Below are positions 1,315 through 27,919 of a stretch of 64,000 nucleotides of DNA, in pieces (position 1 is the stretch's first letter; each line of letters opens with the position of its first letter). The position numbers and the translations under genes are program-made. Origin of the DNA: Zestosphaera sp. (lineage in GTDB: Archaea; Thermoproteota; Thermoprotei_A; Sulfolobales; NBVN01). Under the pieces are notes generated by a model, which had not been told where the DNA came from, did not search any database, and saw only the letters and a list, made by a program, of their open reading frames with translations. Location: assembly GCA_038843015.1 (NCBI GenBank), contig JAWBSH010000003.1:133343-197342 (forward strand), in the 5' to 3' direction.

Positions 1315-1434
1315 GCTAGACTGTTTCCCATCTTCATTACCTCACATCACTCAAAAACCTGACCTACTCTATGAAGGTGGACTCATCCCTAGACGTAAGA
1401 CATTTAATAAATCCTGACTTATATTACACGAGCG

Positions 1435-2091
1435 GTGATTGCGTTGGCGATACTTCAGATAGCACTCGATTCAACAGATCTAAAAAGAGTTCTTAAGCTG
1501 TCTGTAGAAGTAGCTTCAGTGACTAAATGTGAGAGTGTGTGGCTTGAAGCAGGGACTCCCTTAATCAAGTCTTGGGGCACGTTGGCAGTGAAGTCTCTGA
1601 AGGACCTTACGGGCTGCTTCGTCGTAGCTGATACTAAATCTATGGACGTACCTGGTTTAGAGGGTGCAGTAATGTATGAAGCCGGTGCTGACGCGTACAC
1701 GGTCCTGGCTGTTGCTGAAGACGAAATGATTAAAGAAGCTGTAGAGGCCGCACGTAGTTATGGTAAGTCTGTGATAGGAGATTTAATAAGTCATCCTAGA
1801 CCACTTCAGAGAGCACAGGAACTCCACCGATTAGGTGTGGACACGATAGTTTATCATATAGGGATAAGCGTTCAGAGGGCTCGGGGTTTGAGAGCAATAG
1901 ACTTACTGAATGAGGCGGCGAGAATAAAGAGGGAAACATCACTCAGAGTAGCTGTAGCAGGTGGTATCAAACCAGAAGACGTTAAGAAAATAGTAGAAGA
2001 AGGCATAGACATAGTCATAATAGGGGGAGCCATAACTAACTCAGAAAGACCTATAGAAGCGGTTATGAAGACGCTCACGTACATGAAGTAA
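1435..2091 (+). CDS. 3-hexulose-6-phosphate synthase-like protein (OMP-decarboxylase fold, HPS/KGPDC family)
   Basis: LQIALD, EAGTPLIK and ADTKSMD motifs are present. Length is 218 aa with a GTG start. Confidence 0.7.
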   Translation: MIALAILQIALDSTDLKRVLKLSVEVASVTKCESVWLEAGTPLIKSWGTLAVKSLKDLTGCFVVADTKSMDVPGLEGAVMYEAGADAYTVLAVAEDEMIKEAVEAARSYGKSVIGDLISHPRPLQRAQELHRLGVDTIVYHIGISVQRARGLRAIDLLNEAARIKRETSLRVAVAGGIKPEDVKKIVEEGIDIVIIGGAITNSERPIEAVMKTLTYMK

Positions 2092-2148
2092 AACTTAAGC
2101 ACTTTCTTAGAAACATCAAATTTTTGTGATAAAATTTAGTTGAGATAA

Positions 2149-3501
2149 TTATTTATCGCACACTATAGCCTCGTTTAAGAGTTCCCTGCGAAGCTCTAGC
2201 AACTTCTCGTAAAGTTTCTCCGAGTCTATTCTCAAAGGCTTTTTATTAGAGATTATCTTTTTCCCATCCACATATACATCGTTAACGCTTTCATCTCCTA
2301 TGTTATAGACTATGGTAGTGTAAGGGTCTTCTCTCAAACTCGCAATCCTGGTCTTAGGCGGTTTCAGGACCACTATGTCGGCCTTCATGCCAGGTTTTAA
2401 TGCTCCAACTAACTCTCCTATACCTAAGCTTTTGGCAGCTTTGCTAGTAATCATCTCAAGAACTTCTCTTGGTTGGAGCTTGCCAGGCGTTCTATAACGA
2501 CTTGACTGTGCAGCTATAGCTAGCTTTACTTGCTTGAAGAGACTTAAGTCTCCGTCTGTTACGGGCCCGTCCGTAGCTAGAGATACTGTAATACCTCTCT
2601 CTAAAAGCTCTCCTACCCTCGCTATGTCTTGACCCCAACTCATTATAGTGAACGGTGAGTACGCAACGTATATTTCGTGCTTAGACAACACCTTAATATC
2701 TTCGTCTGTAAGATACACTGCGTGAGCCAGTAAAGGTTTGGTTCGCAAGATACCCAGTTTTGCGGCTAGGTCCGTAGGCGTCACTCCATATTTACTCCTA
2801 ACGTAGTCAAGCTCGTGTAGAGACTCAGAGAAGTGCATATGGATTCTTATGCCGCTCTCCTCTGAGAATTCGACAGCCTTAAGTATAGTCTCGGTACTGC
2901 ACGAATACATTGCATGAACTCCTATCATAGTCTTCACTCTGCCGTTTGCGGTCCCGTTGAAGTTTAAAGCGAAGTTTATTGAGTCCTCGATAGTGTGTTT
3001 TGGTGCGTGCTCACTATACTCTACGACACCCTTAGCTAGAACACCCCTAACACCTAACTCCTCAACAGCTCTGACTACTTCTTCTTCATAGAAGTATTGG
3101 TCCGCGAAAGTAGTAATACCGTTTTCCAGCATCAGTAGTATTGAAGCCTTCGTAGACACGTAGATGTGTTCTGGTCTTAACAGACCCTCGACACACCAGA
3201 TTTTCCTCAACCAGTCAAATCCAGTCAAGCCAGCTCCTAAGCCCTGGAGAATTAGCATCGGTGCGTGCGTGTGAGTATTTATTAGTCCGGGCATCACTAT
3301 CGCGTTCTCATCTCCCTCAACGAGATCACACCTTACTGAATCTCTCTTATCCCATCTCGTCACTTCTTCAATCAATCCAGTAGCGTCATCAAACGCAACT
3401 AGCCCGTTACTTATTAGCCCGTATTCTCTACTCATAGATACTATGAGTCCTCTTAAGCACACGATCATTATTATGAACACCCAATATCTCATTAACAACA
3501 A
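2149..3501 (-). CDS. ATZ/TRZ-type amidohydrolase deaminase, MtaD-like (5'-methylthioadenosine/S-adenosylhomocysteine deaminase family)
   Basis: Metal and catalytic motifs are HTHAPM (HxH), HMHFSES (HxxE) and ATDG. The hydrophobic first 22 aa look like an ORF extension. The likely real start is the M at 3435 (MSREYGLISNG). Confidence 0.7.
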   Translation of the reverse strand: MLLMRYWVFIIMIVCLRGLIVSMSREYGLISNGLVAFDDATGLIEEVTRWDKRDSVRCDLVEGDENAIVMPGLINTHTHAPMLILQGLGAGLTGFDWLRKIWCVEGLLRPEHIYVSTKASILLMLENGITTFADQYFYEEEVVRAVEELGVRGVLAKGVVEYSEHAPKHTIEDSINFALNFNGTANGRVKTMIGVHAMYSCSTETILKAVEFSEESGIRIHMHFSESLHELDYVRSKYGVTPTDLAAKLGILRTKPLLAHAVYLTDEDIKVLSKHEIYVAYSPFTIMSWGQDIARVGELLERGITVSLATDGPVTDGDLSLFKQVKLAIAAQSSRYRTPGKLQPREVLEMITSKAAKSLGIGELVGALKPGMKADIVVLKPPKTRIASLREDPYTTIVYNIGDESVNDVYVDGKKIISNKKPLRIDSEKLYEKLLELRRELLNEAIVCDK

Positions 3502-3538
3502 AACTTAAGTACGGAATTATGATTTAATTTAAAAAGAC

Positions 3539-4387
3539 TTACCCTAAGATTTTTATTCTGTCAGCCCAGTAGAGGCCTCGCGCCTTTATTGGGGGATACA
3601 GTATGAAGCCTAATATCGGAGTTATTATGGCTGTTATGAATGCGTTGTTGAATATCACCCAAGGCGCGAAAAAGCCCCATATGAACGCTTTAGGTAATCC
3701 TATAACAGGTTCTGCGAAGTCGAGCCACCAAGAAATATATAGTGAGCACCACACGCTAGATACTAGAACTCCCCATACATAGAACTCGATGATGCTGCGC
3801 GGCGTCCTGAACGAGTGGTCTCTCATTAGCTTGTAAGGTACGTAAGCTATTATGAAGTTCCCCACGAAACCTCCTAAGCTACCTACGCTTAGGTATCCGG
3901 CTAGCGCGTCAGCTATGAAGTTACCTATTGATGTTCCTAAGGCGCCAGGAATGCCGAATAGTATTCCGAAAAGCGGTGCGAGGGCGTTGGCTGGTCTAAC
4001 CCACGTGAAGCCAGGTATTATAGGTATTCCCCCAGTAGCTGCTAACGCGCCACCGTAGACAGCTGCAGACAGCGCGGCCACAGACACGTCAATCGCGTCC
4101 CACTTTATTACTTGCCTCACTATCTTTAAACCCTTGAAAGTCCTGCCACTTAACTCCATGAAGAATATGAGTGTACCCACTAACCACAAGACCCCGCTAA
4201 TTGCGAATAGTCCATCTCTCCCTAAGATGTTGAAAGGTTGTGTTATTATCCATTCACTGGATTTGTCAAGTCCTTTAGCTAGTATGTCAAACCCTATGTA
4301 GAATATGAAGGCTACGAAGATAGCTGCTATTATGAAGGCAATAATCCATAATGCTGATGAGATGGGTCTAGAAGCCATCATGCTCAC
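3539..4387 (-). CDS. polytopic membrane protein, possibly an ECF-type substrate-capture (S) component
   Basis: About 7-8 hydrophobic helices. The Gly-rich stretch GNFIADALAGYLSVGSLGGFVGNF resembles S components. No catalytic motifs were seen. Confidence 0.35.
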   Translation of the reverse strand: MSMMASRPISSALWIIAFIIAAIFVAFIFYIGFDILAKGLDKSSEWIITQPFNILGRDGLFAISGVLWLVGTLIFFMELSGRTFKGLKIVRQVIKWDAIDVSVAALSAAVYGGALAATGGIPIIPGFTWVRPANALAPLFGILFGIPGALGTSIGNFIADALAGYLSVGSLGGFVGNFIIAYVPYKLMRDHSFRTPRSIIEFYVWGVLVSSVWCSLYISWWLDFAEPVIGLPKAFIWGFFAPWVIFNNAFITAIITPILGFILYPPIKARGLYWADRIKILG

Positions 4388-4671
4388 CTCCTTAACACGC
4401 CGGCCCGCATCCAGTAATAGAGTACTGCACCCAGGCCGACAACCAATAATGCCACACCTATTATATTAGCTACTGGGTAAAGACCTGACTCATATACTCC
4501 AGCATAGACGAAAAGATAGTAAATCCCCATAGTGAGAAGCCATAGAAGCCCTATTAGCAAGACTAAAAGTCCCCCCTTAGCCTTACTAACTAACAAGACT
4601 ATGCCGGCAACAAATATTATGATTCCTATAACTGTTAATAGAAGGTACTGATCTATCATTGGATTCACCAC
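4384..4671 (-). CDS. small membrane protein (3 predicted TM helices)
   Basis: The 95 aa product is almost entirely hydrophobic. Its stop overlaps the start of the downstream membrane gene by 4 nt, which suggests coupling. Confidence 0.45.
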   Translation of the reverse strand: MVNPMIDQYLLLTVIGIIIFVAGIVLLVSKAKGGLLVLLIGLLWLLTMGIYYLFVYAGVYESGLYPVANIIGVALLVVGLGAVLYYWMRAGVLRR

Positions 4672-5018
4672 ATGATAATACCTATTATAGTAAATTTAAG
4701 TTTTTTAGCTCTCTGAATTAAAAGAGCATAACAAAGTTGTTGCATCTGAAAGCCTAGTCTCTTGGAACGAGAATGAGTAGAAAGATTTATAATGCTTGTG
4801 TTTACAGTATCTTTTGATGGGATACTTGCTCATGATAGTTACCTCAGAATACTTGAGGAGCGAGCCTCTCATAGATTCGGGAATTACGTCCTCGCCTCAC
4901 ATTATATGGAATAGAGGTGGTGTCTCCAAGACCTGGCACGAGGTTAAATCCCTGATAGAGGAGGGATATAGTCTTAAACTCTCCAGAGTCCTGCTATTCA
5001 TGACGGGGAGGAATTCAA

Positions 5019-5762
5019 GTGAGTGAGACCGTTCACATAAGAGTTAGTAAAAAAGAAGACGTTGCTGAGAGAGTTATTATTGCTGGTGATCCAGCACGCA
5101 TTGATCTATTGAGGGAATTCTTAGAAGAACCCAGACTAGTAAGTAGTGTGAGAGGTTATCACGTCTATACAGGCTCTTATAAGAGTGTGCCAGTCACTCT
5201 TGCTGTTCATGGGATAGGTTCTGGGTCAGCCGCCTTAGTAATAGAGGAATTAATCATGTTGGGTGCTAAAGTCTTGGTTAGATTAGGGACCTGCGGCGCT
5301 ATGATTAAAGAGTTAGATGTGGGTGATGTTGTAATGCCTGCTGGCGCCTCGTACTATTCTGGCGGGATTTTTTATCAGTACTTGGGTGAGTTAGTTTCTC
5401 AGGCAGCGATTCCTGATTTCCAGTTGTTTAAGAACCTCGTTGAGGAAATACACTCGTCTGGTATTAAGTATTTAGTAGCTCCTATAGTAAGTTGTGATGC
5501 TTTCTATACTGAGGAGGGATTTATTAGTAAGTGGGTTAAGAGAGGTGCGGTAGCGGTAGACATGGAGACAGCTATACTGTACGTGTTAGGTCTCTTGAGG
5601 AACGTGAAGACAGCTTCAGTATTAATTGTGAGTAACTCATTAGTTAAACCTAGTAGATTCCTCTTAGCTGATGAGTTAAAGAGCTTCGTTAAGCGAGTAG
5701 CTGTCAGTGTTTTAGAAGCACTTATTAAGACGCCGGCCGACATGAAGCAACTCAATCGCTAA
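5019..5762 (+). CDS. nucleoside phosphorylase, PNP/UDP family (DeoD/Udp/hexameric MTAP-like)
   Basis: Motifs GDPARIDLL, RLGTCGA and VDMETA are present. Length is 247 aa with a GTG start. Confidence 0.75.
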   Translation: MSETVHIRVSKKEDVAERVIIAGDPARIDLLREFLEEPRLVSSVRGYHVYTGSYKSVPVTLAVHGIGSGSAALVIEELIMLGAKVLVRLGTCGAMIKELDVGDVVMPAGASYYSGGIFYQYLGELVSQAAIPDFQLFKNLVEEIHSSGIKYLVAPIVSCDAFYTEEGFISKWVKRGAVAVDMETAILYVLGLLRNVKTASVLIVSNSLVKPSRFLLADELKSFVKRVAVSVLEALIKTPADMKQLNR

Positions 5763-5828
5763 GCATTTTAAGTCTTTAAGTCTTCGTTTTTAATTATTTC
5801 ATGACTACTTAATCGCGGGCGAGTTAAG

Positions 5829-6839
5829 ATGAAAGCTCTACTCCTCTACTCACCAGGTGTTTTGAGATTAACAGATGTTCCTGACCCTGTATTAGGTGAG
5901 AATCAAGTATTGATTAAAGTCGAGAGGTCAGGTATCTGCGGTACTGATAAGGCTTTCTACAAGGGAACCTACAGACCTGGTAAAACACCGATAATACTGG
6001 GTCATGAAGTTTCTGGTAGAGTTGTTGATTTGGGCAAGAACGCCAGTATCGATAAATCTATAATTGGCGCTAGAGTTACTACAGAAATAAACTTCTACTG
6101 CGGTAAGTGCTGGTATTGTAGAAATGGTTTACCCACACACTGTCCTTATAGGGAAACCCTAGGTATATCTGTTGACGGTAGTTTCGCAGAGTACGTAGTG
6201 AGTAGGCATGATTTAATACACGTAGTAAATGATTTAACACCTCTTCAGGCAGCTTTTGTCGAACCCCTCGCAGCTGTAGTTGAAATGGTTGAGTTGGCGC
6301 CACCACAACATAACGCAAACATAGCGGTAATAGGGGTTGGGACTGTAGGGCTTTTAACTTTAGGACTTCTTTCAAGACTCTATGAGCCCAGACTTTTGGT
6401 AGCTGTGGCTAGACCAGACACTCCTAAGAGAAACGTAGCTTTCGACATGGGCGCGCACGAAGTATTATCTGGTGAGGAACTAGCAGAGGTGGTTGCTAGA
6501 AATACTCCTGAAGGAGCTGGGTTTGATTACGTGGTTGAGGCTTCAGGAACTCCTGAGGGACTTCAAAAAGCTGTCGAGATCGTGAGACCACGTGGTGTCG
6601 TAGCAGTCAAGTCTACACACGGCATCCCGACTAAAATTGACGTGACTAAGCTAGTAGTAAAAGAAGCTAGTCTTGTAGGGAGTAGGTGTGGCCCCTTCAA
6701 GAAAGCCATAAAACTGTTGAGAGAGGGGGTCATCCAAGTAGAGAAGCTAGTTACTTCAGAGTTTCCCTTAAGTAGAGGCATTGAAGCGTTTGAGAAAAGC
6801 TTTGAGAGAAGAGAGATAAAAGTTCACATAATCGCTTGA
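5829..6839 (+). CDS. zinc-dependent alcohol/threonine dehydrogenase-like oxidoreductase (MDR family)
   Basis: GICGTD and GHE zinc-ligand motifs, the structural-zinc cysteines CGKCWYCRNGLPTHC, and the GVGTVG Rossmann motif. Confidence 0.8.
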   Translation: MKALLLYSPGVLRLTDVPDPVLGENQVLIKVERSGICGTDKAFYKGTYRPGKTPIILGHEVSGRVVDLGKNASIDKSIIGARVTTEINFYCGKCWYCRNGLPTHCPYRETLGISVDGSFAEYVVSRHDLIHVVNDLTPLQAAFVEPLAAVVEMVELAPPQHNANIAVIGVGTVGLLTLGLLSRLYEPRLLVAVARPDTPKRNVAFDMGAHEVLSGEELAEVVARNTPEGAGFDYVVEASGTPEGLQKAVEIVRPRGVVAVKSTHGIPTKIDVTKLVVKEASLVGSRCGPFKKAIKLLREGVIQVEKLVTSEFPLSRGIEAFEKSFERREIKVHIIA

Positions 6840-6942: not shown

Positions 6943-7764
6943 GTGGTTGCAGTGTCTCTTTCGGGACTTTATCTGCCTAGAGATTCTGTGATCCATAAGC
7001 TAGATGCTCGTGTTAAATTAGCTTGGTTTATTTTAGCTTTTGCAGCCTCAATAGCTAGTCAGTGGGATGGTTCTGTTTCGGTATTTGTGTATTTATCACT
7101 TATAGTAGGGTTGGCGCTTGCTAAGATATCTGTGAAGAGAGCTATTCTAACTATAGTGTATAGTGTAGTGTTCTTTCTAGTAACTACTTTAGTGTGGGCG
7201 TCTATGTACCAGGATGTGGGCAACTACATCACTACTTTCCCTCTAATCAATATTAGGTTGACTGACGCAGGACTCTTAGTAGGGACTGGAAAATTCTTCC
7301 TCATAGTAAACCCCATCACAGCTTTTTTGCTACTCATGACCACCACCAGGATGTACGATTTGCACTACATAATCACTAAAGCCGGGTTACCGTATAAAGC
7401 AGGTTTTATGTTTACTCTAGCCTTAGGTTTACTACCCTACACGTTTACTGAGATAAAAAACATAATTGATGTTCAGAAAGCTAGGGGGCTAGAAGTAGAC
7501 TCAAGAAACCCTATTAAGAAAATAGTCTACGTAGTGCCGATTTTCGTCCCTCTAGTAATAAGGATGATGAGTTACGTGTGGGACTTAAGCATAGTTTTAA
7601 GTGTTAGAGGGTTTGGAGCACACCCCAAGAGATCATACTACTTCTCTCTTAAGTGGGGTAAGAAAGATACGATAGCATTGTCATTGCTAACAGCAATGTA
7701 TTTATCGATAATATTCCTCAAGCTAACAGGCTTTTCTACTTACTACTTCTTGAGGGGTGTGTGA
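6943..7764 (+). CDS. ecfT: ECF transporter transmembrane (T) component, EcfT/CbiQ family
   Basis: Polytopic membrane protein with the signature QKARGLEVD loop. Its end overlaps the start of the following fused ECF ATPase gene. Confidence 0.75.
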   Translation: MVAVSLSGLYLPRDSVIHKLDARVKLAWFILAFAASIASQWDGSVSVFVYLSLIVGLALAKISVKRAILTIVYSVVFFLVTTLVWASMYQDVGNYITTFPLINIRLTDAGLLVGTGKFFLIVNPITAFLLLMTTTRMYDLHYIITKAGLPYKAGFMFTLALGLLPYTFTEIKNIIDVQKARGLEVDSRNPIKKIVYVVPIFVPLVIRMMSYVWDLSIVLSVRGFGAHPKRSYYFSLKWGKKDTIALSLLTAMYLSIIFLKLTGFSTYYFLRGV

Positions 7765-9490
7765 AGTGTCTACGGTAATCAGTATTGAGGACTTATGGTT
7801 TAAATATTTAGCTAGTAGCGAGTGGGTTCTAAAGAACATCAACTTTAAAATGAAAGAGGGTGAGACGGTAGTCATCATGGGTCCTTCAGGCTGTGGTAAG
7901 TCGACATTACTGTATGTTCTAGTCGGGATGATACCGCACGTGATAAGGGGGGAATTAAGAGGTAAGGTGAACGTTCTAGGAATGAACGTTGAGGAGGTGA
8001 GGCCTGAAATACTTAGTAGGCACATAGGCTTTGTTTTCCAGAACCCTGAACTCCAGGTCATAATGCCTACTATTCTTGAGGAGTTAGTATTCGGGTTAGA
8101 GAATTTAAACTTAAACAGAGAAGAAATTGAAAGACGAGTGACTGAAGTCCTAGATTTTATTGGATTTAGAGGAAGAGAGTTTGAGGACCCGCACGCCTTG
8201 AGTTCCGGGGAGAAGCAGGTGCTAGCTATCGCGTCAGTACTTGCTTTAAGACCTAAAATCCTCGTTTTAGACGAACCTACTTCTATGTTAGATCACGTAG
8301 GTACCTCTAAGATATTAGGTTTGGTTGAGAAGCTAAAGAGAGAAACGAATCTTTCTCTACTGGTTGTTGAGCATAGGATTGAGTGGATAGCAGAACACGC
8401 TGACAGAGTTATCGTAATGAAGGACGGCGAGTTCGTGAGAGAGGGAACACCCAAAGAGATATTCAATGATAAGGAGTTAATTCAAAAGACTGGTGTGAGA
8501 CCACCTCAAGTCTCTGAAATCTTTTACAAGGTAGCTGAACGCAGACCTCAATTAATTAAGAGTGGGATACCTGTGACGATGAGTGAGGCTCTCAACCTCA
8601 TAAGTGAGGCAGGGCTTAACACGAACACATTATTTCATCTGGTTCCTGTGGAGGGCGGGTCTGAAAAGCCGTGTGAGGACGTTTTAATTAGTGTTAAGGA
8701 TCTCTGGTTCAGGTACAGGAAAGATTCGCCGTGGGTTCTTAAGAACATTAACTTAGACATATGTAGGAGGGAGTTCGTAGCTATCATAGGGCATAGTGGT
8801 GCAGGAAAAACAACTCTAGTAAAACACTTTAATGGCTTGTTAAAGCCTGTGAGAGGTAATGTGATTGTAGCAGGACGAGATACTAGGAGGGTGCCCACAT
8901 CCATGCTAGCAAGAGTTGTTGGTATGGTAATGCAGAACCCGGAAGCTCAGTTCTTCGCGAGCACTATATATGAGGAAATGAGCTTCTCTCTTAAGAGGAT
9001 TGGTTTAAAGAAGGAGGAGATAGAAAGCAGAATTAGAGAGGCTTTTGAAATAGTTGATTTAGTTAAACCATTAGACATATCACCTCACCTCCTCAGTTTT
9101 GGCGAGAAACATAGGTTAGCTATAGCTTCAGTGCTTGTTTTAAAGCCTCAAGTACTAGTCTTAGATGAGCCGTTCTCAGGACTTGACTACAAGAGGAGTC
9201 TCCAGCTCTTACTAGCTTTAAGAAGATTTGTTGAGGATGGAGGTACTGTAGTCTTAGTAGCGCACGACCTCCAGTTAATCAGTGAAGTAGCTGATAAAGT
9301 GGTTGTGTTAGAGAACGGCACTATAAAGCGCATCGGCGCTATGAGAGAAGTCTTAAGTGATGCCGAGTGGCTAAAAACTCAGGGTTTCACACCTCTCCAG
9401 TCAGTGTTGCTAGCTAGGGAGGTAGGTCTGAAATCTTTAGTCAAGACTGGCGAGATCTCAGAAGCGCTTGTTAATGCTCTTAAATCTTAA
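7757..9490 (+). CDS. fused ECF transporter ATPase (EcfA1-EcfA2, two ABC domains)
   Basis: Two complete ABC cassettes are present. The first has GPSGCGKST, LSSGEKQ and LVLDEPTSMLD. The second has GHSGAGKTT, LSFGEKH and LVLDEPFSGLD. Confidence 0.85.
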   Translation: MCEVSTVISIEDLWFKYLASSEWVLKNINFKMKEGETVVIMGPSGCGKSTLLYVLVGMIPHVIRGELRGKVNVLGMNVEEVRPEILSRHIGFVFQNPELQVIMPTILEELVFGLENLNLNREEIERRVTEVLDFIGFRGREFEDPHALSSGEKQVLAIASVLALRPKILVLDEPTSMLDHVGTSKILGLVEKLKRETNLSLLVVEHRIEWIAEHADRVIVMKDGEFVREGTPKEIFNDKELIQKTGVRPPQVSEIFYKVAERRPQLIKSGIPVTMSEALNLISEAGLNTNTLFHLVPVEGGSEKPCEDVLISVKDLWFRYRKDSPWVLKNINLDICRREFVAIIGHSGAGKTTLVKHFNGLLKPVRGNVIVAGRDTRRVPTSMLARVVGMVMQNPEAQFFASTIYEEMSFSLKRIGLKKEEIESRIREAFEIVDLVKPLDISPHLLSFGEKHRLAIASVLVLKPQVLVLDEPFSGLDYKRSLQLLLALRRFVEDGGTVVLVAHDLQLISEVADKVVVLENGTIKRIGAMREVLSDAEWLKTQGFTPLQSVLLAREVGLKSLVKTGEISEALVNALKS

Positions 9491-21541: not shown

Positions 21542-22849
21542 GTGAGGATGTTTCCTAAGACGCCGGATATAACTGAAGTCTTTGAAAAACTTGATGAAGG
21601 GTCTGAAGTAGTTATTCGTGGCTGGGTCTATAGGATTTTTAAAGTTGGTGGCAAGATTTTCGCGTGGGTTAGGGATCACTCAGGCTACATCCAGGTTGTT
21701 TTTGATAAGAGTTACGTGTCTAGTGACTGGGACTCTGTAGAGAAGCTGACTAGAGAGTCTAGTATTGAGGTTAAGGGTATTGTGAGGGTCGACGCCAGAG
21801 CTCCTGGTGGCAAGGAAATAGTAGCTAACAGCTTAGTCGTTTACGGCTACTCACCTCCTTTCCCTATAAAGGGGGGTGAAGACATAGAGTACTTACTCAA
21901 TGTGAGGCATCTCTGGCTTAGATCTAGGCAGATGATAGCGTTACTTAAGATTAAGCATACGGTGATTCAAGCTTTAAGAGATTGGCTGATAAAGGATGGG
22001 TGGTGGGAGACTACACCACCGATACTTACTGGGTCGGCTGTAGAGGGTGGCGCTACTTTATTTGAAGTTAAGTATTTCGACAAGACCGCCTACCTTTCTC
22101 AGTCAGCCCAGCTATATCTTGAGGTGTTGATATTCCCACTCAATAAGGTTTGGGCTCTAACACCCTCGTTTAGAGCTGAGAAATCAAGGACTAGAAGACA
22201 CCTCAGCGAGTACTGGCACTTAGAGGTTGAGGCTGCCTGGTATGATATGGAGGACATGATGAAGGTCGCGGAAGACATCGTTAGCTATGCAGTAGCTAAG
22301 ACGCTGGAGGAGAGAAAAGAAGAGCTTAAACTCCTCAACAGGGATACTTCTAAGCTTGAGAAAGCTCTTGAGACTCCCTACCCCAAAATAACGTACGACG
22401 ACGCTATCAGGATTCTTCAGAGGAAAGGCTTCAATATCAAGTGGGGTGATGACTACGGCGCTGACGAAGAGAAGACTTTAACAGAAGATTTTGAAACCCC
22501 GTTCTTCGTAACTCACTTTCCTAAACACATAAAAGCCTTCTACATGAAGGAAGATCCTAGCAGGCCTGAAGTAGTGTTAGGATTTGATTTGCTCGCTCCA
22601 GAAGGTTATGGCGAGATCATAGGAGGTTCGCAGAGAGAAGATAGCTATGAGAAATTATACAACAGGATAATAGAGGAGGGACTCAACTACCAAGATTACG
22701 AGTGGTATCTTGATTTAAGAAAGTATGGGAGCGTACCTCACTCAGGATTCGGATTAGGCGTTGAGCGATTAGTTATGTGGGTTTCAGGGATAGACCACAT
22801 AAGGGACGCGATACCCTTCCCTAGATGGAGAGGACGCATCTATCCTTAG
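21542..22849 (+). CDS. asnS: asparaginyl-tRNA synthetase
   Basis: Class IIb motifs are LSQSAQLYLE, FRAEKSRTRRHLSEYWHLEVE, GEIIGGSQRE and GSVPHSGFGLGVERL. The SGFGLG form is the AsnRS type, not the AspRS HGG type. The protein ends FPRWRGRIYP. Confidence 0.85.
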   Translation: MRMFPKTPDITEVFEKLDEGSEVVIRGWVYRIFKVGGKIFAWVRDHSGYIQVVFDKSYVSSDWDSVEKLTRESSIEVKGIVRVDARAPGGKEIVANSLVVYGYSPPFPIKGGEDIEYLLNVRHLWLRSRQMIALLKIKHTVIQALRDWLIKDGWWETTPPILTGSAVEGGATLFEVKYFDKTAYLSQSAQLYLEVLIFPLNKVWALTPSFRAEKSRTRRHLSEYWHLEVEAAWYDMEDMMKVAEDIVSYAVAKTLEERKEELKLLNRDTSKLEKALETPYPKITYDDAIRILQRKGFNIKWGDDYGADEEKTLTEDFETPFFVTHFPKHIKAFYMKEDPSRPEVVLGFDLLAPEGYGEIIGGSQREDSYEKLYNRIIEEGLNYQDYEWYLDLRKYGSVPHSGFGLGVERLVMWVSGIDHIRDAIPFPRWRGRIYP

Positions 22850-22859
22850 TTGGGGTTTG

Positions 22860-23315
22860 TTACTCGTAGACCACGTTAACTATATGTTTCACTTTATTTG
22901 TTCCTTCACTCATTATTAGCCGTATTAACTCCTTAGTAGTGTCTGTCAACTCTAGCTTCAAAGCATCACTAAACTTGAAGAACCCTATGCCGAGAGACTC
23001 TTCGTTTGCTATAGGCTCACCCTCAGCGTCGGTGACTAGATAATCTAGTATTACGTAGTGATACTTGACGCTGTAGTCTCTCTTCAGTCTTATATACTCA
23101 GTTATAGCTAGTAGTGTTGCCTTACTAGCTTTGAGTGAAGTCTCTTCTTCTAACTCCCTAAACAAGGCTACGAGCACCGGTTCTCCTGCCTCTATGTGTC
23201 CACCAGGTATCGACCATAAGTTTGGTGAGGGAGGGTACTTCCTCTTAATAAGGAGGATTTCATCATTATTTCTCAGTACTACTGCCCCGACAGCTACTCT
23301 AGGCCATTCAGTCAT
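22860..23315 (-). CDS. NUDIX hydrolase
   Basis: Nudix box GGHIEAGEPVLVALFRELEEETSL. Confidence 0.85.
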   Translation of the reverse strand: MTEWPRVAVGAVVLRNNDEILLIKRKYPPSPNLWSIPGGHIEAGEPVLVALFRELEEETSLKASKATLLAITEYIRLKRDYSVKYHYVILDYLVTDAEGEPIANEESLGIGFFKFSDALKLELTDTTKELIRLIMSEGTNKVKHIVNVVYE

Positions 23316-23389
23316 CGTGAATACCTACTAAAGAGTTACAGATTAACGTTTTATCTTTTCATTAAATTACGTCTTAGGTGCTGTGAGAG

Positions 23390-24709
23390 TTGGGGGTCAG
23401 GCTCTGTTGTGTCAAGTGTGGTTATGAGGTGAGTGAGGTCAGGTACGTTGATTACTGCCCTAATTGTGGGGGTCTTTTAATTGCTCGTTCTCCCGAGTCT
23501 TTAAGGAGGGGCAGGAGTTCAGGAGTTTGGGCTTGGGGCAGTAGCTTGTACACTTCACGTATGGCGCCAAAAATTACTTTAGGTGAGGGCAACACCCCCC
23601 TCATAAAGTCCGTTAAGATTGGGAGAAGTATTGGCTTAACACTGTATTTAAAAGATGAGTCTAAGAATCCTACAGGCTCTTTCATAGACAGGGGTTCTGC
23701 TACGCTAGCTACTGCCTTAAAGTATTTTAGGGTCAGGTCAGTAGCAGTCCCTTCAACGGGAGACTTAAGTATATCTGTGTCGACGTATCTGAAGCGCGCC
23801 GGGATATCTAGCAGAGCATACATACCGTCTAGTGTCACTTTAAGCAAAGCATACAAAACTCTCTTAGTGAGTGATAAGGTTAGATTTGTTGAGAGCTATG
23901 AGGAGGCATTGCTTAAAGCCTTAAAGAGTGCGCAGTTTTACGGCGCGGTAGTACTGCCTACTAACCCTTTCTTGATTGACGGGTACAGAACGGTAGCTAT
24001 CGAAGTAGTCCACTCGCTAGGTAAGAAAAGACCTCTAGTAATTGTAGTGCCGATAGGAGATGGCGTTCTAGCTATAAGTATTCATTATGTTCTCGAAGAT
24101 CTGCGAGTCCCGCACAAAATCTTAGGAGTCAGAGCATGTAAAGAATCTCCACTACTGAGAGATATTTACGTTGCTAAACCAATGCTCCAGGAATATCTTA
24201 AAAGACTTGAAGACCTGGGCTTCATAGAGGTTGTCAGCGTATGTGATGATGAGGCGCTTGAAGCCAGTGAATTCATAGTTAAGAAGGAAGGCTTCTTAAT
24301 AGGTCCTGTGGGAGCATCATGTATAGCCGCACTTAAGAAAGTACTTTCTGAAGAGATGAAAGACTTCATTACGGTGGCTTTGATGTCAGGCGATCCGCTG
24401 CAAGACCCATACGTTATCAAGGCTCTTCTTGAGAAGACTGTGAAGCCTGAAGAGCACGTAGTAACTCTAGGCTTTACTAAGGTGAAGATCTTAGAGATTC
24501 TTGCTTACAGTAATCCAACTCACCCATACATGCTGTGGAAAGAGCTCAAGCAGAAGCACGGACTCGATCTAAGCAGGAGAAGCATCTATAAACATGTAGA
24601 GGAACTCATCAACTTAGGCCTACTGAGAGTAGTTGGTTATGAGAAGGTTGAGGGGAGAACTAGGAAGATAGTCTCTATAACAGAATCGGGCTTGAAGCAT
24701 CTTATGTAA
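23390..24709 (+). CDS. threonine-synthase-fold (PLP fold type II) protein lacking the PLP lysine, with N-terminal zinc ribbon and C-terminal winged-helix domain
   Basis: CxxC...CxxC zinc ribbon (CVKCG...CPNCGG). The ThrC signature reads NPTGSFIDRG where family members have NPTGSFKDRG. The C-terminal ~75 aa (ILEILAYS...SIYKHVEELINLGLLRV...ITESGLKHL) looks like a wHTH. TTG start. Confidence 0.7.
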   Translation: MGVRLCCVKCGYEVSEVRYVDYCPNCGGLLIARSPESLRRGRSSGVWAWGSSLYTSRMAPKITLGEGNTPLIKSVKIGRSIGLTLYLKDESKNPTGSFIDRGSATLATALKYFRVRSVAVPSTGDLSISVSTYLKRAGISSRAYIPSSVTLSKAYKTLLVSDKVRFVESYEEALLKALKSAQFYGAVVLPTNPFLIDGYRTVAIEVVHSLGKKRPLVIVVPIGDGVLAISIHYVLEDLRVPHKILGVRACKESPLLRDIYVAKPMLQEYLKRLEDLGFIEVVSVCDDEALEASEFIVKKEGFLIGPVGASCIAALKKVLSEEMKDFITVALMSGDPLQDPYVIKALLEKTVKPEEHVVTLGFTKVKILEILAYSNPTHPYMLWKELKQKHGLDLSRRSIYKHVEELINLGLLRVVGYEKVEGRTRKIVSITESGLKHLM

Positions 24710-24780
24710 TATTAAGAGTTTATAGTGAACCTAATAGTGTATTAGTAGCCTAAAAGCATTCTCACATTATCCTACGTGAG

Positions 24781-25527
24781 GTGTGGTCAGTGAGTGTGGT
24801 TAGAGTCTCTCTCTATACTGCGCTAGTCTTAATAGCTACTATAGTACTCCAAGTATACACGCCCGCTACCCGAGGTTATTTCAACCTTGGTGAGGTAGCT
24901 ATATATACTGTTGCTGCACTAACCTCGCCGCTCATAGCAGGTGTTGCGGGGGGCGTGGGTTCAGCTTTAGCAGACTTAGTGACTGGCTACGGGATTTTTG
25001 CGCCCGGCACATTAGTGATTAAGTTTGTTGAGGGCTTCATAGCGTCGTCACTAATTTCCTCTTTTAGGAAGAGATTATCCCCTTCTAGGGCGCGAGTAGC
25101 GTCATTAATTATGGGAGTGCTTTTAGGAGTTCTGATAGCTGGGTTAGGGATAGTTCTTTTCACTGGGGAAGTTGAAGTATACTCTGTACCGCTCAGTGTT
25201 ATGGGCTTTGAAGTTATAGTGCTTTCTACTAAGTTCTCGCTAGCTACTTGGTTCTGGGTCTTAGTCGGCCTGGCTGTCACTGCTTTAGTAATTTATTTCG
25301 TGATCAGAGTTAGGGGTGAAAGCCTGAGTTTCGTAATTCCAGTCTTAATTAGTGGGCTAATAATGGTTACGGGATACTTCCTCTACGAGTACTTCGTTTC
25401 TAACCCCCTCCAAGGAATACCTCCTGAAGAAGCTTTCGTTGAAGTTCCTGTTAACTTGGGTCAGGCTTTGGTAGGTCTAGCACTCTCGTCACCTGTTATA
25501 ACGTTTGTCAATAGAGCTAGAGGGTAG
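24781..25527 (+). CDS. ECF-type substrate-capture (S) component-like membrane protein
   Basis: Six or more TM helices. The GSALADLVTGYGIFAPGTLVIKFVEG segment is typical of S components. The gene directly abuts an ECF-like double ATPase gene. Confidence 0.55.
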   Translation: MWSVSVVRVSLYTALVLIATIVLQVYTPATRGYFNLGEVAIYTVAALTSPLIAGVAGGVGSALADLVTGYGIFAPGTLVIKFVEGFIASSLISSFRKRLSPSRARVASLIMGVLLGVLIAGLGIVLFTGEVEVYSVPLSVMGFEVIVLSTKFSLATWFWVLVGLAVTALVIYFVIRVRGESLSFVIPVLISGLIMVTGYFLYEYFVSNPLQGIPPEEAFVEVPVNLGQALVGLALSSPVITFVNRARG

Positions 25528-26795
25528 TGCTTAATTTGATGGAATTTAAGGATTTCAACGTATGGATAAACGAGCACCACATACTGAAGGACGTTTCCTT
25601 TAGTGTTGGTGAGGACTGCATAGTTTTGTTGATAGGACCTTCAGGTTCTGGGAAATCAACGTTGCTGAAAACATTGAGTGGAGTGATACCATCAGTCATT
25701 AAGGGTTTTGTTAAGGGTTTTTCTAGTCCGCCTCTAGAAGTGCTTAAGAAGAAGACCATGTATGTGCATCAAGAGCCTTGGTTTTTTATTTCAACTCCTT
25801 ATGTTTGGTCAGAGATCGCGGGCTACACCTCGATAAAGTCTCTAAACGACCTCCAAAGAGTTCTCGAAGAGTTCGGACTTGACCGACACGTCAACAGGAC
25901 TACATATACATTAAGTGCTGGCGAGATTCAGAGACTTGCTTTCGTGATGGCTGTAAATTCCGGGAAGGAAGTAATCCTGTTAGATGAGCCTACTTCTTAC
26001 CTAGATAAATACAATTCCGAGAACTTAGTGAGGTTTGTCAGTAAGATTAGTAGAGATTACGGCAAAACGTTCGTTATAGTAGATCATGACTTGACACTTT
26101 GGAGTGATTACGTGAGTAAGGTCTTGTACCTTAGTGAGGGGAGACTCACTGAGACGTCGGAAAATCCTTTTAAGGAAGTCATTGATTACATGACTCACAC
26201 GCTAAGACCTCCGAACTCGGGAAATGATGGGTGTCTGAAGATACGTGTTGAGAGCTTCAAGTTTCCTGACTCGAGAGAGCCTCTACTAACTAACATACGT
26301 TTTGAAGTCTGTAAGGGGGAAGTAGTAGTTGTTAAGGGTTCTTCCGGGTCTGGGAAGACTACATTACTTAAGTTGATAGCGAGTGGGTGTCTAAAAAATA
26401 ACGGGGTAGTCAGTTCTGAGGGGAGTCGCTGTAAGGCTGTTTTAGTTCCTGATAATCCCTTACTTTATTTGAGTTCACCTACTCCTGAGGAAGAGGTCGG
26501 TGTAGACGGCTTGAAGTATCTTGAGTATTTAGGTATCGGCGGTAAGGCTAGAACTCCTATTATGAAGCTCAGTAGCGGTGAGAGGAGGAGATTAGCTATA
26601 GCTTCAGCTCTTTCAAGAGGTTACGAGTATGTCTTTATGGACGAACCTACAGCAGGTCTAGACCCGCTGAATAAGTTAAATGTTATTGAAGCGATTATTA
26701 AGGCTGCCGAAATGGGTATAGGCTTTGTGATAGCTTCTCATGACCCCTTCGTAGAGATGATAGCTAATAAGGTGGTATGTGTTGAGCGTTCTTAG
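25527..26795 (+). CDS. fused double ABC ATPase (compact ECF EcfA-A'-like)
   Basis: The first cassette has GPSGSGKST, LSAGEIQR and LLDEPTSYLD. The second has GSSGSGKTT, LSSGERRR and FMDEPTAGLD. At 422 aa it is much shorter than the 577 aa paralog at 7757. Confidence 0.8.
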   Translation: MLNLMEFKDFNVWINEHHILKDVSFSVGEDCIVLLIGPSGSGKSTLLKTLSGVIPSVIKGFVKGFSSPPLEVLKKKTMYVHQEPWFFISTPYVWSEIAGYTSIKSLNDLQRVLEEFGLDRHVNRTTYTLSAGEIQRLAFVMAVNSGKEVILLDEPTSYLDKYNSENLVRFVSKISRDYGKTFVIVDHDLTLWSDYVSKVLYLSEGRLTETSENPFKEVIDYMTHTLRPPNSGNDGCLKIRVESFKFPDSREPLLTNIRFEVCKGEVVVVKGSSGSGKTTLLKLIASGCLKNNGVVSSEGSRCKAVLVPDNPLLYLSSPTPEEEVGVDGLKYLEYLGIGGKARTPIMKLSSGERRRLAIASALSRGYEYVFMDEPTAGLDPLNKLNVIEAIIKAAEMGIGFVIASHDPFVEMIANKVVCVERS

Positions 26796-27474
26796 GAGAA
26801 TCACTGAACTTTTAAGACTGTTTACCTCGCTACTGTTTAGATCTATCTTCATTTACGGGGATATTGAGGGGAGGCATGTTCCTCTCATTATTAATCTCGC
26901 ACTACTAGTTACTCAAATTTTAGTAGCTAGGGGTGGTAGTGAGCGCTTATTATTTGTGCTTGCATCCATCCTGTTCTTATATGTAGTTCGAGGGTCTAGC
27001 AAAGTAATTATTTATTCGTGTGTTTTAGCTTTAATACCTACTATGTGGTATTTCGTTGTTTCGCTACCTTTCACGATGAGTTTTTCGATATCAGCTTTAA
27101 TAGCTTTGAGGGTATTTACTGTGAGTCTATCTTTTCTTTGTTTCTTTTACTTCTTAAATCCTGTAGAGGTTTCGTTCATACTGAGGTTGCTTCGTCTAGA
27201 GAACCTGTCTTTATATCCAGCCCTTACTTGGAGGGTAGTACCACATATAATGAGAGATGTGGAGACGGCATTGCTTGTAGGCGAGATGAAGAGAGTAGAA
27301 GCTTGGAAGAGTCTAGCTATCGCTGTTTTAACGACTGAAGAGTATGTATCTCTATATGAGGAGGGGTTGTTTAGCAAGCCCGAATATAAGCCTTCCTACA
27401 AGTATAGTGTTAAACACACGCTCGCCACTATAGTAGTCTTAATTGCTTTGAGTCTCGTGTTGTTGCTGGGTTGA
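26779..27474 (+). CDS. membrane protein in the T-component position of the ECF-like operon (divergent; lacks the canonical ARG loop)
   Basis: Polytopic, and overlaps the ATPase stop by 17 nt. The assignment rests on position only. Confidence 0.4.
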   Translation: MLSVLRRITELLRLFTSLLFRSIFIYGDIEGRHVPLIINLALLVTQILVARGGSERLLFVLASILFLYVVRGSSKVIIYSCVLALIPTMWYFVVSLPFTMSFSISALIALRVFTVSLSFLCFFYFLNPVEVSFILRLLRLENLSLYPALTWRVVPHIMRDVETALLVGEMKRVEAWKSLAIAVLTTEEYVSLYEEGLFSKPEYKPSYKYSVKHTLATIVVLIALSLVLLLG

Positions 27475-27538: not shown

Positions 27539-27919
27539 ATGAGTCTTACACCAGGTATGAAGCACGTGAGGAAATACGTCACAACACAGCAGCATTCTGC
27601 AAAGCATGTGGGTTCAGGGAATGTAGAGGTTCTTTCCACTCCTTCTATGATCCTCTTCATGGAGGAGACTTGCCGCATCTTTGCTGATGAACACCTACCC
27701 GAAGGCCAGACTACTGTAGGGGTTCACGTAGACGTATATCACGTACGTCCAGCACCAATAGGTAGTGAGGTAGAGATACACTCAACTCTACTACAATCTG
27801 ATGGCAGGAAACTTATGTTTTGGGTTGAGGCTTGGTGCTCAGGAGCATTAATAGGTTACGGATTTCACGAGAGAGTTGTGGTAGAAAAAGAAAAGTTTTT
27901 ATCAAAGATTAAGAGCTAA
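27539..27919 (+). CDS. hotdog-fold thioesterase (FlK/COG5496-like)
   Basis: 126 aa. VGSGNVEVLSTPSMILFMEE and VGVHVDVYHVRPAPIGS segments are typical of this small thioesterase family. Confidence 0.65.
   Translation: MSLTPGMKHVRKYVTTQQHSAKHVGSGNVEVLSTPSMILFMEETCRIFADEHLPEGQTTVGVHVDVYHVRPAPIGSEVEIHSTLLQSDGRKLMFWVEAWCSGALIGYGFHERVVVEKEKFLSKIKS

Follow-up and report, generated by a model that had tools for sequence, protein, structure and literature searches.

In the bacterial MocR/PdxR/GabR regulators, the fold of a pyridoxal 5′-phosphate (PLP) enzyme serves as the sensor of a one-component transcription factor. ThiR, the thiamine regulator of Archaea, joins a catalytically impaired ThiN enzyme domain to a DNA-binding domain and controls genes of thiamine biosynthesis and transport. 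Another archaeal vitamin regulator, RbkR, combines a pathway-enzyme domain with a winged helix-turn-helix (wHTH) and controls biosynthesis genes together with the S component of an energy-coupling factor (ECF) transporter, through operators that vary between lineages (PMC5397151). PdxR senses PLP and controls pdxST, pdxK and pdxU, a gene of Pfam family PF07155; MocR regulators are reported to be absent from Archaea (PMC5320631). Very few prokaryotic transporters of vitamin B6 have been identified so far (PMC9997740), and archaeal regulation of B6 synthesis and uptake lacks a known regulator. Here we analyze a gene at positions 23390-24709 (+) of a 64-kb stretch of DNA, referred to as the window, from a metagenome-assembled genome (MAG) of Zestosphaera (Desulfurococcaceae; Desulfurococcales). 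Its 439-residue product consists of a zinc ribbon, a pseudoenzyme domain resembling threonine synthase (ThrC) and a PadR-type wHTH, and the gene is separated by 71 nt from an ECF module. We computed its architecture, the loss of its catalytic residues, its family-wide conservation, its gene linkage and the conserved motifs in the adjacent intergenic DNA. The protein is probably a one-component regulator of the adjacent ECF importer, with a B6 vitamer as its provisional ligand.

The gene begins with a TTG start codon, which is backed by the orthologue alignment. At the N terminus, a four-cysteine zinc ribbon (Cys7, Cys10, Cys23 and Cys26; 23408-23467, +) gives a weak match to the Pfam model HVO_2753_ZBP over residues 7-37, and its cysteines are nearly invariant among archaeal relatives, whether or not these are fused to a wHTH. 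The ribbon is followed by a ThrC-like fold-type-II PLP-enzyme domain spanning residues 62-333 (23573-24388, +; Pfam PALP, E = 6.5e-39). The ThrC structures 6cgq, 2zsj and 1uim are the first matches by sequence (phmmer against Protein Data Bank (PDB) sequences, E about 1e-26). Solved ThrC structures are also the best matches to the body of a full-length AlphaFold model (Foldseek E about 1e-19 to 1e-20; target-normalized template-modeling (TM) score about 0.73-0.78), which was calculated from a 74-sequence alignment with a predicted local distance difference test (pLDDT) score of 91.5 and a predicted TM score of 0.78. The zinc ribbon and ThrC layout described in an earlier note, made from the sequence without database searches, are thereby borne out.

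In the full-length model, a disordered linker at residues 355-358 separates the ThrC-like body from the C-terminal domain (residues 362-438; 24473-24703, +), which is predicted to adopt the α1-α2-α3-β-β-α4 order of a PadR-type winged helix. Modeled alone, this domain reaches a pLDDT of 91.5 and superposes on PadR-family regulators and the haloarchaeal RosR (TM 0.68-0.78, root-mean-square deviation 1.6-2.8 Å; Foldseek). The matched structures include DNA-bound ones (5X11, 6QH0 and 6QFD), with RosR-DNA and BsPadR-DNA complexes among them. By sequence, a search of the C-terminal 83 residues against the PDB was uninformative and a fold search was needed. The Pfam PadR model (PF03551) matches residues 367-437 with E = 2e-5 and 24.9 bits against a gathering score of 27 bits, and PF03551 is recorded for most orthologues. 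The models therefore support a winged helix, as the earlier note had proposed, with an assignment to the PadR type that is supported by fold and borderline by hidden Markov model (HMM), and they suggest that the domain binds DNA.

The ThrC-like domain has lost the residues on which PLP catalysis depends in ThrC. The window protein carries the motifs NPTGSFIDRG and STGD, and phmmer alignments to solved ThrC structures place Ile99 (codon ATA, 23684-23686, +) under the Schiff-base lysine of NPTGSFKDRG and Asp125 (codon GAC, 23762-23764, +) under the asparagine of STGN; both codons were read directly and both replacements agree with the earlier reading. To extend the comparison, 124 full-length wHTH-bearing homologues were set against 134 unfused ThrC-like proteins, all retrieved around the window query. 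In this query-centered sample, lysine occupies the Schiff-base column in 132 of the 134 unfused proteins versus 1 of the 124 fused ones, which instead carry isoleucine (56), leucine (26), arginine (15), valine (10), threonine (6), methionine (4) and others. The frequencies identify further remodeled positions in the window protein between 23972 and 24070 (+): Leu195 for the ThrC arginine, Tyr199 for a glutamine, and Asp224 and Leu227 for the two asparagines of GNxGN, which reads GDGVL here. Among the fused proteins in general, the arginine of NPxR (present in 97 unfused proteins), which binds the substrate phosphate in ThrC structures, is replaced by Leu, Phe, Val or Tyr; the glutamine of EGQKT by Tyr or Leu; GNxGN by G[DSN]G[GAV][LH]; and the histidine of TGHGLKD (His335) by Ser, Ala, Gly or Asp. 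Asn93, Pro94, Asp100, Arg101, Thr201, the loop glycines and Thr/Ser333 are kept. No lysine column is enriched in the alignment of the fused family, indicating that no alternative catalytic lysine has taken over. The window protein scores 76.3 bits against the thrC model TIGR00260, for which the cutoff is 167.1 bits, and judged from its sequence it falls outside ThrC on three counts: the lysine, the phosphate contacts and the HMM score.

The replacement residues are themselves conserved. Across the sub-family of the window protein (32 sequences with 32-83% identity and a mean column identity of 48%), Ile99, Asp125, Leu195, Tyr199, Asp224 and Leu227 are invariant or nearly so, with Asp125 invariant. 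Thus, the remodeled pocket appears to be under selection and not in decay. Since independent assemblies with identities down to 37% have isoleucine or leucine at the lysine column, Ile99 is not a sequencing error, a possibility that the earlier note had left standing.

Orthologues share the change from lysine to isoleucine or leucine, with the exception of a lysine-keeping Asgard branch. The near-absence of lysine among the 124 fused proteins had suggested that fusion and lysine loss go together, but this proved to be a sampling artifact of the query-centered search. When the single lysine-bearing fused protein (P0231) was used as the seed, a large and mostly Asgard branch was recovered in which 115 of 120 fused proteins keep the lysine. 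Its members (P0270-P0388) come from Loki-, Heimdall-, Hod-, Hermod-, Odin- and Thorarchaeota and carry the signature NPTNSFKDR[AVT]; in P0231 itself the arginine, the phosphate-loop asparagines and the histidine are still lost despite the lysine. Lysine loss is therefore not family-wide. From these sequences it is a derived state of several branches, that of the window included, in which the lysine became Ile, Leu, Val, Arg or other residues. Hundreds of archaeal homologues from Thermoproteota, Bathyarchaeia, Nitrososphaerota and Asgard share the wHTH fusion. A profile search with the lysine-to-arginine group placed 4,626 of the scored candidates at E ≤ 1e-40; among the matches listed, most are from Bathyarchaeia, 114 of 115 have the arginine, and the names, where given, are 'threonine synthase'. 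By these sequence counts the fusion family is large and old. Fused and unfused forms also coexist as separate genes, as seen in one bathyarchaeial locus (L015), where an unfused 419-residue PALP/ThrC-like gene (4888-6147, -; PALP E = 1.6e-77) lies about 0.8 kb from the fused regulator gene (6971-8398, +).

Downstream of the regulator gene, the window encodes an ECF importer with the composition that the earlier note had given. The S component (24781-25527, +) belongs to PF07155, the PdxU/HmpT family (Pfam E = 2.7e-24). Its true start may be the GTG at 24790 rather than 24781, since the ATG of orthologues falls at that codon in the alignment and a conserved GAGGTG precedes it. With 248 residues versus about 170 for HmpT, and a Pfam match limited to residues 5-137, the protein is implied to have extra C-terminal transmembrane segments. 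It is followed by a fused double ATP-binding cassette (ABC) ATPase (EcfA-A′; 25527-26795, +) with two ABC_tran domains and ECF_ATPase models among its matches, and by a divergent EcfT, the T component (26779-27474, +). The latter has no Pfam match, being too divergent for the CbiQ model, but is related by BLASTP to the CbiQ of locus L005 in the coupling-helix region (E = 4e-7), and its position is conserved in orthologous loci. As far as sequence can tell, the S component, two ABC ATPase domains and EcfT are encoded together as a dedicated ECF module, the T component being assigned by pairwise homology only.

The association between the regulator and the S component extends well beyond the window. 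We surveyed the neighborhoods of 83 distinct loci, 10 of which are cut by contig ends, leaving 73 informative. The scan of metagenomes for these loci used an alignment restricted to Ile/Leu members, because a scan of genome contigs with a mixed alignment that allowed any residue at the lysine column was swamped by canonical ThrC genes (only L010-L016 were useful). Of the 73 informative loci, 56 have a PF07155 S component no more than 400 bp from the regulator gene (divergent in 44, co-directional in 12), and three more have one at 0.4-3.5 kb. Orthologues with 40-64% identity show the same gene order as the window. In more distant members, the S component is the partner that remains. It is divergent from the regulator in Nitrososphaerota, Bathyarchaeia and Nitrosopumilales, and likewise in Njordarchaeales, where split ATPases and a canonical CbiQ accompany it; at the P0033 locus, a solitary S component lies directly downstream of the regulator. 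The partner S components of divergent loci are mostly solitary, with no ATPase or T gene alongside. Even the lysine-type Asgard loci (L170-L173) have the S component, convergent in four of four, with three abutting the 3′ end of the regulator gene and one about 600 bp away. Any other neighbor family occurs in at most 16 of the 83 loci, and the recurrent ones follow lineage synteny. We estimate that a gene family present about once per genome would be an immediate neighbor by chance in well under 1% of loci. As the linkage persists in different orientations (co-directional, divergent and convergent) and in different phyla (Thermoproteota, Bathyarchaeia, Nitrososphaerota and Asgard), it constitutes strong evidence of functional coupling, and the ECF neighborhood that the earlier note had seen in one genome is found to recur across archaea.

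The identity of the S component points toward vitamin B6. Despite its Pfam name, PF07155 (COG4720) is the family of the ECF B6 components PdxU and PdxU2/HmpT (PMC9997740), and HmpT has been shown to bind pyridoxamine (PMC4860826), which is the only experimentally verified substrate that we found for this S-component family (PMC4860826; PMC9997740). RibU, the riboflavin S component of archaeal RbkR regulons, belongs to a separate group, COG3601 (PMC5397151). The only meaningful solved relative of the window S component is HmpT (4HZU chain S, E = 7.7e-7). At the column of HmpT Glu41, 51 of 53 regulator-adjacent S components have Glu or Asp, and at that of His84 all 53 have Lys, His or Arg; the window protein has Glu and Lys at these columns, and Lys is found at the second in most of the set. 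By these alignments, the S-component pocket is related to that of HmpT but not identical to it. In one locus (L122), pdxS (SOR_SNZ, E = 7e-97), pdxT (SNO, E = 2.5e-51) and an S component (PF07155, E = 1e-16) are divergent from the regulator gene across a bipartite motif described below. On present sequence evidence, the importer most likely carries B6 vitamers. The L122 operon (2966-5906, -) runs on into an Amidohydro_2 protein and a GDPD/nucleoside-2-deoxyribosyltransferase-like fusion, genes that may have further B6-related or salvage functions.

The intergenic DNA between the regulator and the importer contains conserved elements. In the window, a candidate operator consists of tandem 12-nt boxes, ATAGTGAAC-CTA-ATAGTGTAT (ATAGTG boxes; 24722-24742, +), which form a conserved block with variable flanks in seven window-type loci. 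Their consensus is ATrGTGAAC-ynr-ATAkTGTAT, and the rest of the DNA between the regulator and S-component genes is variable apart from a CCTAAAA box. The latter, invariant in 7 of 7 aligned loci, is part of the CCTAAAAGC box (24749-24757, +), a candidate TATA element of the importer promoter about 28 nt before the GTG at 24781 and 37 nt before that at 24790. In six more distant co-directional loci, the corresponding tandem is ATAyTGArG-N3-ATAyTGAkG, with a short A/T-rich box behind it. The window contains the exact tandem of 24722-24742 a single time. A copy with one mismatch at 7153-7170 lies within an open reading frame (ORF) and was taken as chance; the overall count was not above that of shuffled sequences. 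The tandem boxes emerged only from comparison across loci, a generic search for inverted and direct repeats with a seed of 6 having found nothing in either intergenic region. A σ70 promoter and terminator scan gave nothing useful, the σ70 model not being applicable to an archaeon, and no Rfam family, riboswitches included, matches 22800-25200. The DNA upstream of the regulator gene in window-type loci, between it and the NUDIX gene described below, has no tandem box that would point to autoregulation.

Divergent-type loci share a different, bipartite motif, ATATATAAG-N7-CCTATATATAGG, which can also be written RATATATAAG-N6-7-CCTATATATAGG. The 12-bp palindrome, with at most one mismatch, has 39 matches in 687 kb versus about 2.5 expected. 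Of these, 32 lie within 120 nt upstream of a regulator start and five more are located just inside ORFs that were probably called too long. Measured from the first Cys codon of the zinc ribbon, the center of the palindrome lies about 38 nt upstream, corresponding to roughly 13-20 nt before the start codon, a position at which archaeal repressors often bind. With this geometry, the left box, which has a purine-rich stretch ahead of it, would be the better candidate for the TATA box and BRE of the regulator gene, and the palindrome may be a repressor site. The conserved motifs track the regulator sub-families and are positioned in the DNA between regulator and transporter genes.

Several other genes recur near the regulator. 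In Desulfurococcales-type loci, the regulator-ECF block is flanked by a divergent NUDIX hydrolase (22860-23315, - in the window; 15 loci) and a lineage-conserved FlK-like thioesterase downstream of the ECF module (27539-27919, + in the window; 14 loci). These two, along with RIO kinase, CTP synthase and nucleoside hydrolase, were considered as partners of the regulator and set aside because they track lineage synteny rather than the regulator; the NUDIX and FlK genes may be part of the system or only syntenic with it. An AIRS/AIRS_C-fold protein of about 340 residues is encoded in seven regulator loci, for example L007 (6832-7863), L016 (5074-6534), L163 (3378-4403), L140 (4830-5837), L142 and L160. 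It is usually located directly behind the S component, and in L140 it is divergent to the regulator in the usual place of the S component. Among NCBIfam models it comes closest to HypE and ThiL, without reaching the cutoff of either. This uncharacterized protein may belong to the regulon as a second member and act on the imported compound as an ATP-dependent enzyme. In each of the Asgard loci examined (L170-L173), a PfkB gene of the sugar-kinase-like kind is found about 3 kb upstream. When the recurrent Asgard neighbors were checked for a B6 identity, none was found: the PfkB kinase is tagatose/sugar-kinase-like, and a Flavin_Reduct protein has no assignment. An inosine-uridine-type nucleoside hydrolase is divergent to the regulator in L143 (4945-5919) and L150 (11-952), both of which have no adjacent S component, and in L165 the divergent-neighbor position is taken by the solute-binding protein of a classical ABC system.

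We propose the following mechanism. Without a lysine at position 99, the ThrC-like domain would not form a Schiff base with PLP, and with leucine at 195 in place of arginine it would not bind O-phosphohomoserine; its remodeled pocket, kept under purifying selection, would act as a small-molecule sensor. The PadR-type winged helix would bind the tandem boxes (24722-24742), which immediately precede the TATA-like box of the importer operon, and occupancy by the ligand would set transcription of the S, A-A′ and T genes. The ligand would most likely be a B6 vitamer held non-covalently, with PLP and pyridoxamine 5′-phosphate as candidates. In the sub-family with Asp125 and Asp224 and a degraded phosphate loop, the candidates also include, more speculatively, a cationic vitamer that carries no phosphate, such as pyridoxamine. 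The change from Asn to Asp at 125 and 224, together with the hydrophobic replacements of Lys, Arg, Gln and Asn, argues against a phosphate-bearing ligand in the window sub-type. The analogy with RbkR and PdxR makes repression under ample vitamin the likeliest mode, but activation would also fit, because the window-type site is upstream of the TATA-like box. The earlier note had suggested an amino acid or a B6-type ligand. The B6 part finds support in the HmpT relationship of the S component and the pdxST genes of L122, whereas threonine and O-phosphohomoserine are disfavored because the phosphate-binding arginine is gone. Otherwise, every element of its enzyme-derived, ligand-sensing regulator that could be tested computationally held, and that reading is supported.

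We regard it as likely that the protein regulates the adjacent importer, whereas B6 as both ligand and cargo is favored only slightly over an even judgment. Several observations weigh against one part or the other. The PadR score of the window protein is slightly below the Pfam cutoff, and DNA binding, the ligand and the sign of regulation are all proposed from computation. In fourteen loci, 800 bp or more of sequence is available on each side, yet no S component is adjacent. In L010, from a Desulfurococcales MAG (1357-3598), the NUDIX, regulator and FlK thioesterase genes are present and the whole ECF module is missing; a regulator that persists without an adjacent importer may have its target elsewhere. 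The AT-rich bipartite motif may be, in part or in whole, a pair of TATA boxes serving divergent promoters rather than an operator. As for the ligand, PF07155 also holds non-B6 members, no regulator-adjacent S component reaches the cutoff of a named NCBIfam sub-family, and the link to pdxST, being a single locus of about 87, is suggestive but not conclusive. PLP itself may fail to bind in the window sub-family, given the Asp in its phosphate loop and its more hydrophobic pocket. These points leave room for a regulator with the same target but another ligand and cargo, such as the thiamine pyrimidine hydroxymethylpyrimidine, which was originally predicted for HmpT, a different heteroaromatic micronutrient or a derivative of an amino acid. 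The functional heterogeneity of PF07155, the Lys at the HmpT His84 column in most S components, the ThiL/HypE-like AIRS-fold gene behind the S component in several loci and the pocket's missing phosphate contacts are all compatible with this. We nevertheless consider it unlikely, since the sensor derives from a PLP-binding fold in which ring-contact positions are kept (Thr/Ser333 and Asn/Asp125), the lysine-keeping branch has the same gene linkage, the S component of L122 shares an operon with pdxS and pdxT, and pyridoxamine is the sole verified substrate in the family.

If the protein were no DNA-binding regulator, its winged helix could mediate dimerization or protein contacts and the protein could be a cytosolic partner of the transporter, for example trapping the vitamin or passing it on. 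Linkage by itself does not separate a regulator from such an accessory protein, the convergent Asgard layout provides no shared promoter, and the PadR score falls slightly short of its cutoff. Yet the fold of the C-terminal domain matches those of PadR and RosR domains in DNA complexes, the intergenic motifs follow the regulator sub-families, and the S components of divergent loci are mostly solitary, as for members of a regulon and unlike those of a fixed complex, making an accessory role improbable. That the protein is still an enzyme, perhaps a bifunctional one like RbkR or BirA, using non-covalent PLP or a different chemistry, seems more improbable again: the lysine, the substrate-phosphate arginine, Gln199, both phosphate-loop asparagines and His335 have all been replaced, no lysine compensates, and the scores of the window protein are far under the cutoffs of both the thrC and the PRK05638 models. 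This alternative draws on the archaeal precedent of RbkR for enzyme-regulator bifunctionality (PMC5397151) and on annotation, as pipelines name relatives threonine synthase and several lysine-less members exceed the TIGR00260 cutoff. That the Ile codon reflects faulty sequencing or assembly, or that the gene is a pseudogene in decay, was only ever a prior possibility raised by the MAG source. Such an artifact is effectively refuted: the ORF of 439 codons is intact, dozens of independent assemblies carry the substitution, and the replacement residues are conserved.

The annotation of the family deserves separate attention. The NCBIfam model NF004170/PRK05638, a 'threonine synthase' equivalog of 442 positions, aligns end to end with fused proteins, wHTH included, and no other NCBIfam model matches the window protein, or any of the sub-families tested, better. 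Against a cutoff of 421 bits, the window protein reaches 141, split over two stretches, and relatives score 194-399 bits with end-to-end coverage. As the model spans the wHTH and its top scorers are lysine-to-arginine fused proteins (399 and 396 bits), PRK05638 is probably misnamed as 'threonine synthase'. Several lysine-less fused members also exceed the TIGR00260 cutoff of 167, for example P0033 at 228 and P0133 at 211; these two and P0187 were the proteins considered alongside the PRK05638 and TIGR00260 models. In databases, fused proteins are called 'threonine synthase', 'pyridoxal-phosphate dependent enzyme' and, twice, 'Transcriptional regulator'. Judging from these matches, thousands of archaeal MAG proteins are likely to be systematically misannotated as threonine synthase, and metabolic reconstructions that rely on the name can wrongly credit MAGs of Bathyarchaeia, Asgard and other groups with threonine prototrophy.

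A full-text literature search found no published account of a ThrC-like protein fused to a wHTH, which is no proof of novelty; the use of a fold-type-II PLP domain for sensing in an archaeal one-component regulator is apparently undescribed. If the proposal is true, the ThrC-like fold-type-II PLP domain would be a new sensor scaffold beside those of MocR, RbkR, ThiR and BirA, and the family would be a testable candidate for both a B6 regulator and its importer. A broader version, which we offer tentatively and hold to be rather doubtful, is that the family is the missing archaeal B6 master regulator and the first transcription-factor family with a fold-type-II PLP sensor. Lysine-bearing Asgard members would then hold PLP as an internal aldimine, and lysine-less members from Thermoproteota, Bathyarchaeia and Nitrososphaerota would sense vitamers non-covalently. 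The Asp125/Asp224 sub-type might be specialized for pyridoxamine without a phosphate, which its partner importer would carry, and thousands of 'threonine synthase' annotations, including PRK05638, would denote regulators. The natural series from lysine-bearing to lysine-less proteins would be useful for studying how an enzyme becomes a receptor, and a thermostable wHTH that responds to a small molecule is a possible biosensor part.

Compared with canonical ThrC (TIGR00260; 1UIM, 2ZSJ and 6CGQ), the window protein shares the fold, the archaeal N-terminal zinc ribbon and the motifs NPTGSF-DRG and EGNTPL. It differs in lacking the Schiff-base lysine, the substrate-phosphate arginine, the glutamine of EGQKT, both asparagines of GNxGN and the histidine of TGHGLKD, and in possessing an additional wHTH. 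The partner S component resembles PdxU and PdxU2/HmpT (4HZU) in its PF07155 membership and the acidic residue at the Glu41 column, and its counterpart in L122 is co-operonic with pdxST; however, at about 250 residues it is longer than HmpT (about 170), has Lys at the His84 column and remains below the NCBIfam sub-family cutoffs. Similar to MocR, PdxR and GabR, the protein appears to use a PLP-enzyme fold as its sensor, so that the analogy drawn in the earlier note is apt, and PdxR regulons parallel the S-component and pdxST neighbors observed here. The bacterial proteins, however, have a fold-type-I domain and an N-terminal GntR-type wHTH, whereas the window protein has a fold-type-II domain and a C-terminal PadR-type wHTH. 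MocR also keeps the PLP lysine that is isoleucine here, and with no sequence relationship between them it is an analogue only. RbkR is closer in its overall plan, as an archaeal vitamin regulator made of an enzyme domain and a wHTH, but its riboflavin kinase is catalytically active, its fold and vitamin are others, and its transporter, RibU, is not of PF07155. The closest conceptual precedent for a retired enzyme that serves as a vitamin sensor is ThiR, from which the window protein differs in fold, vitamin and DNA-binding domain.

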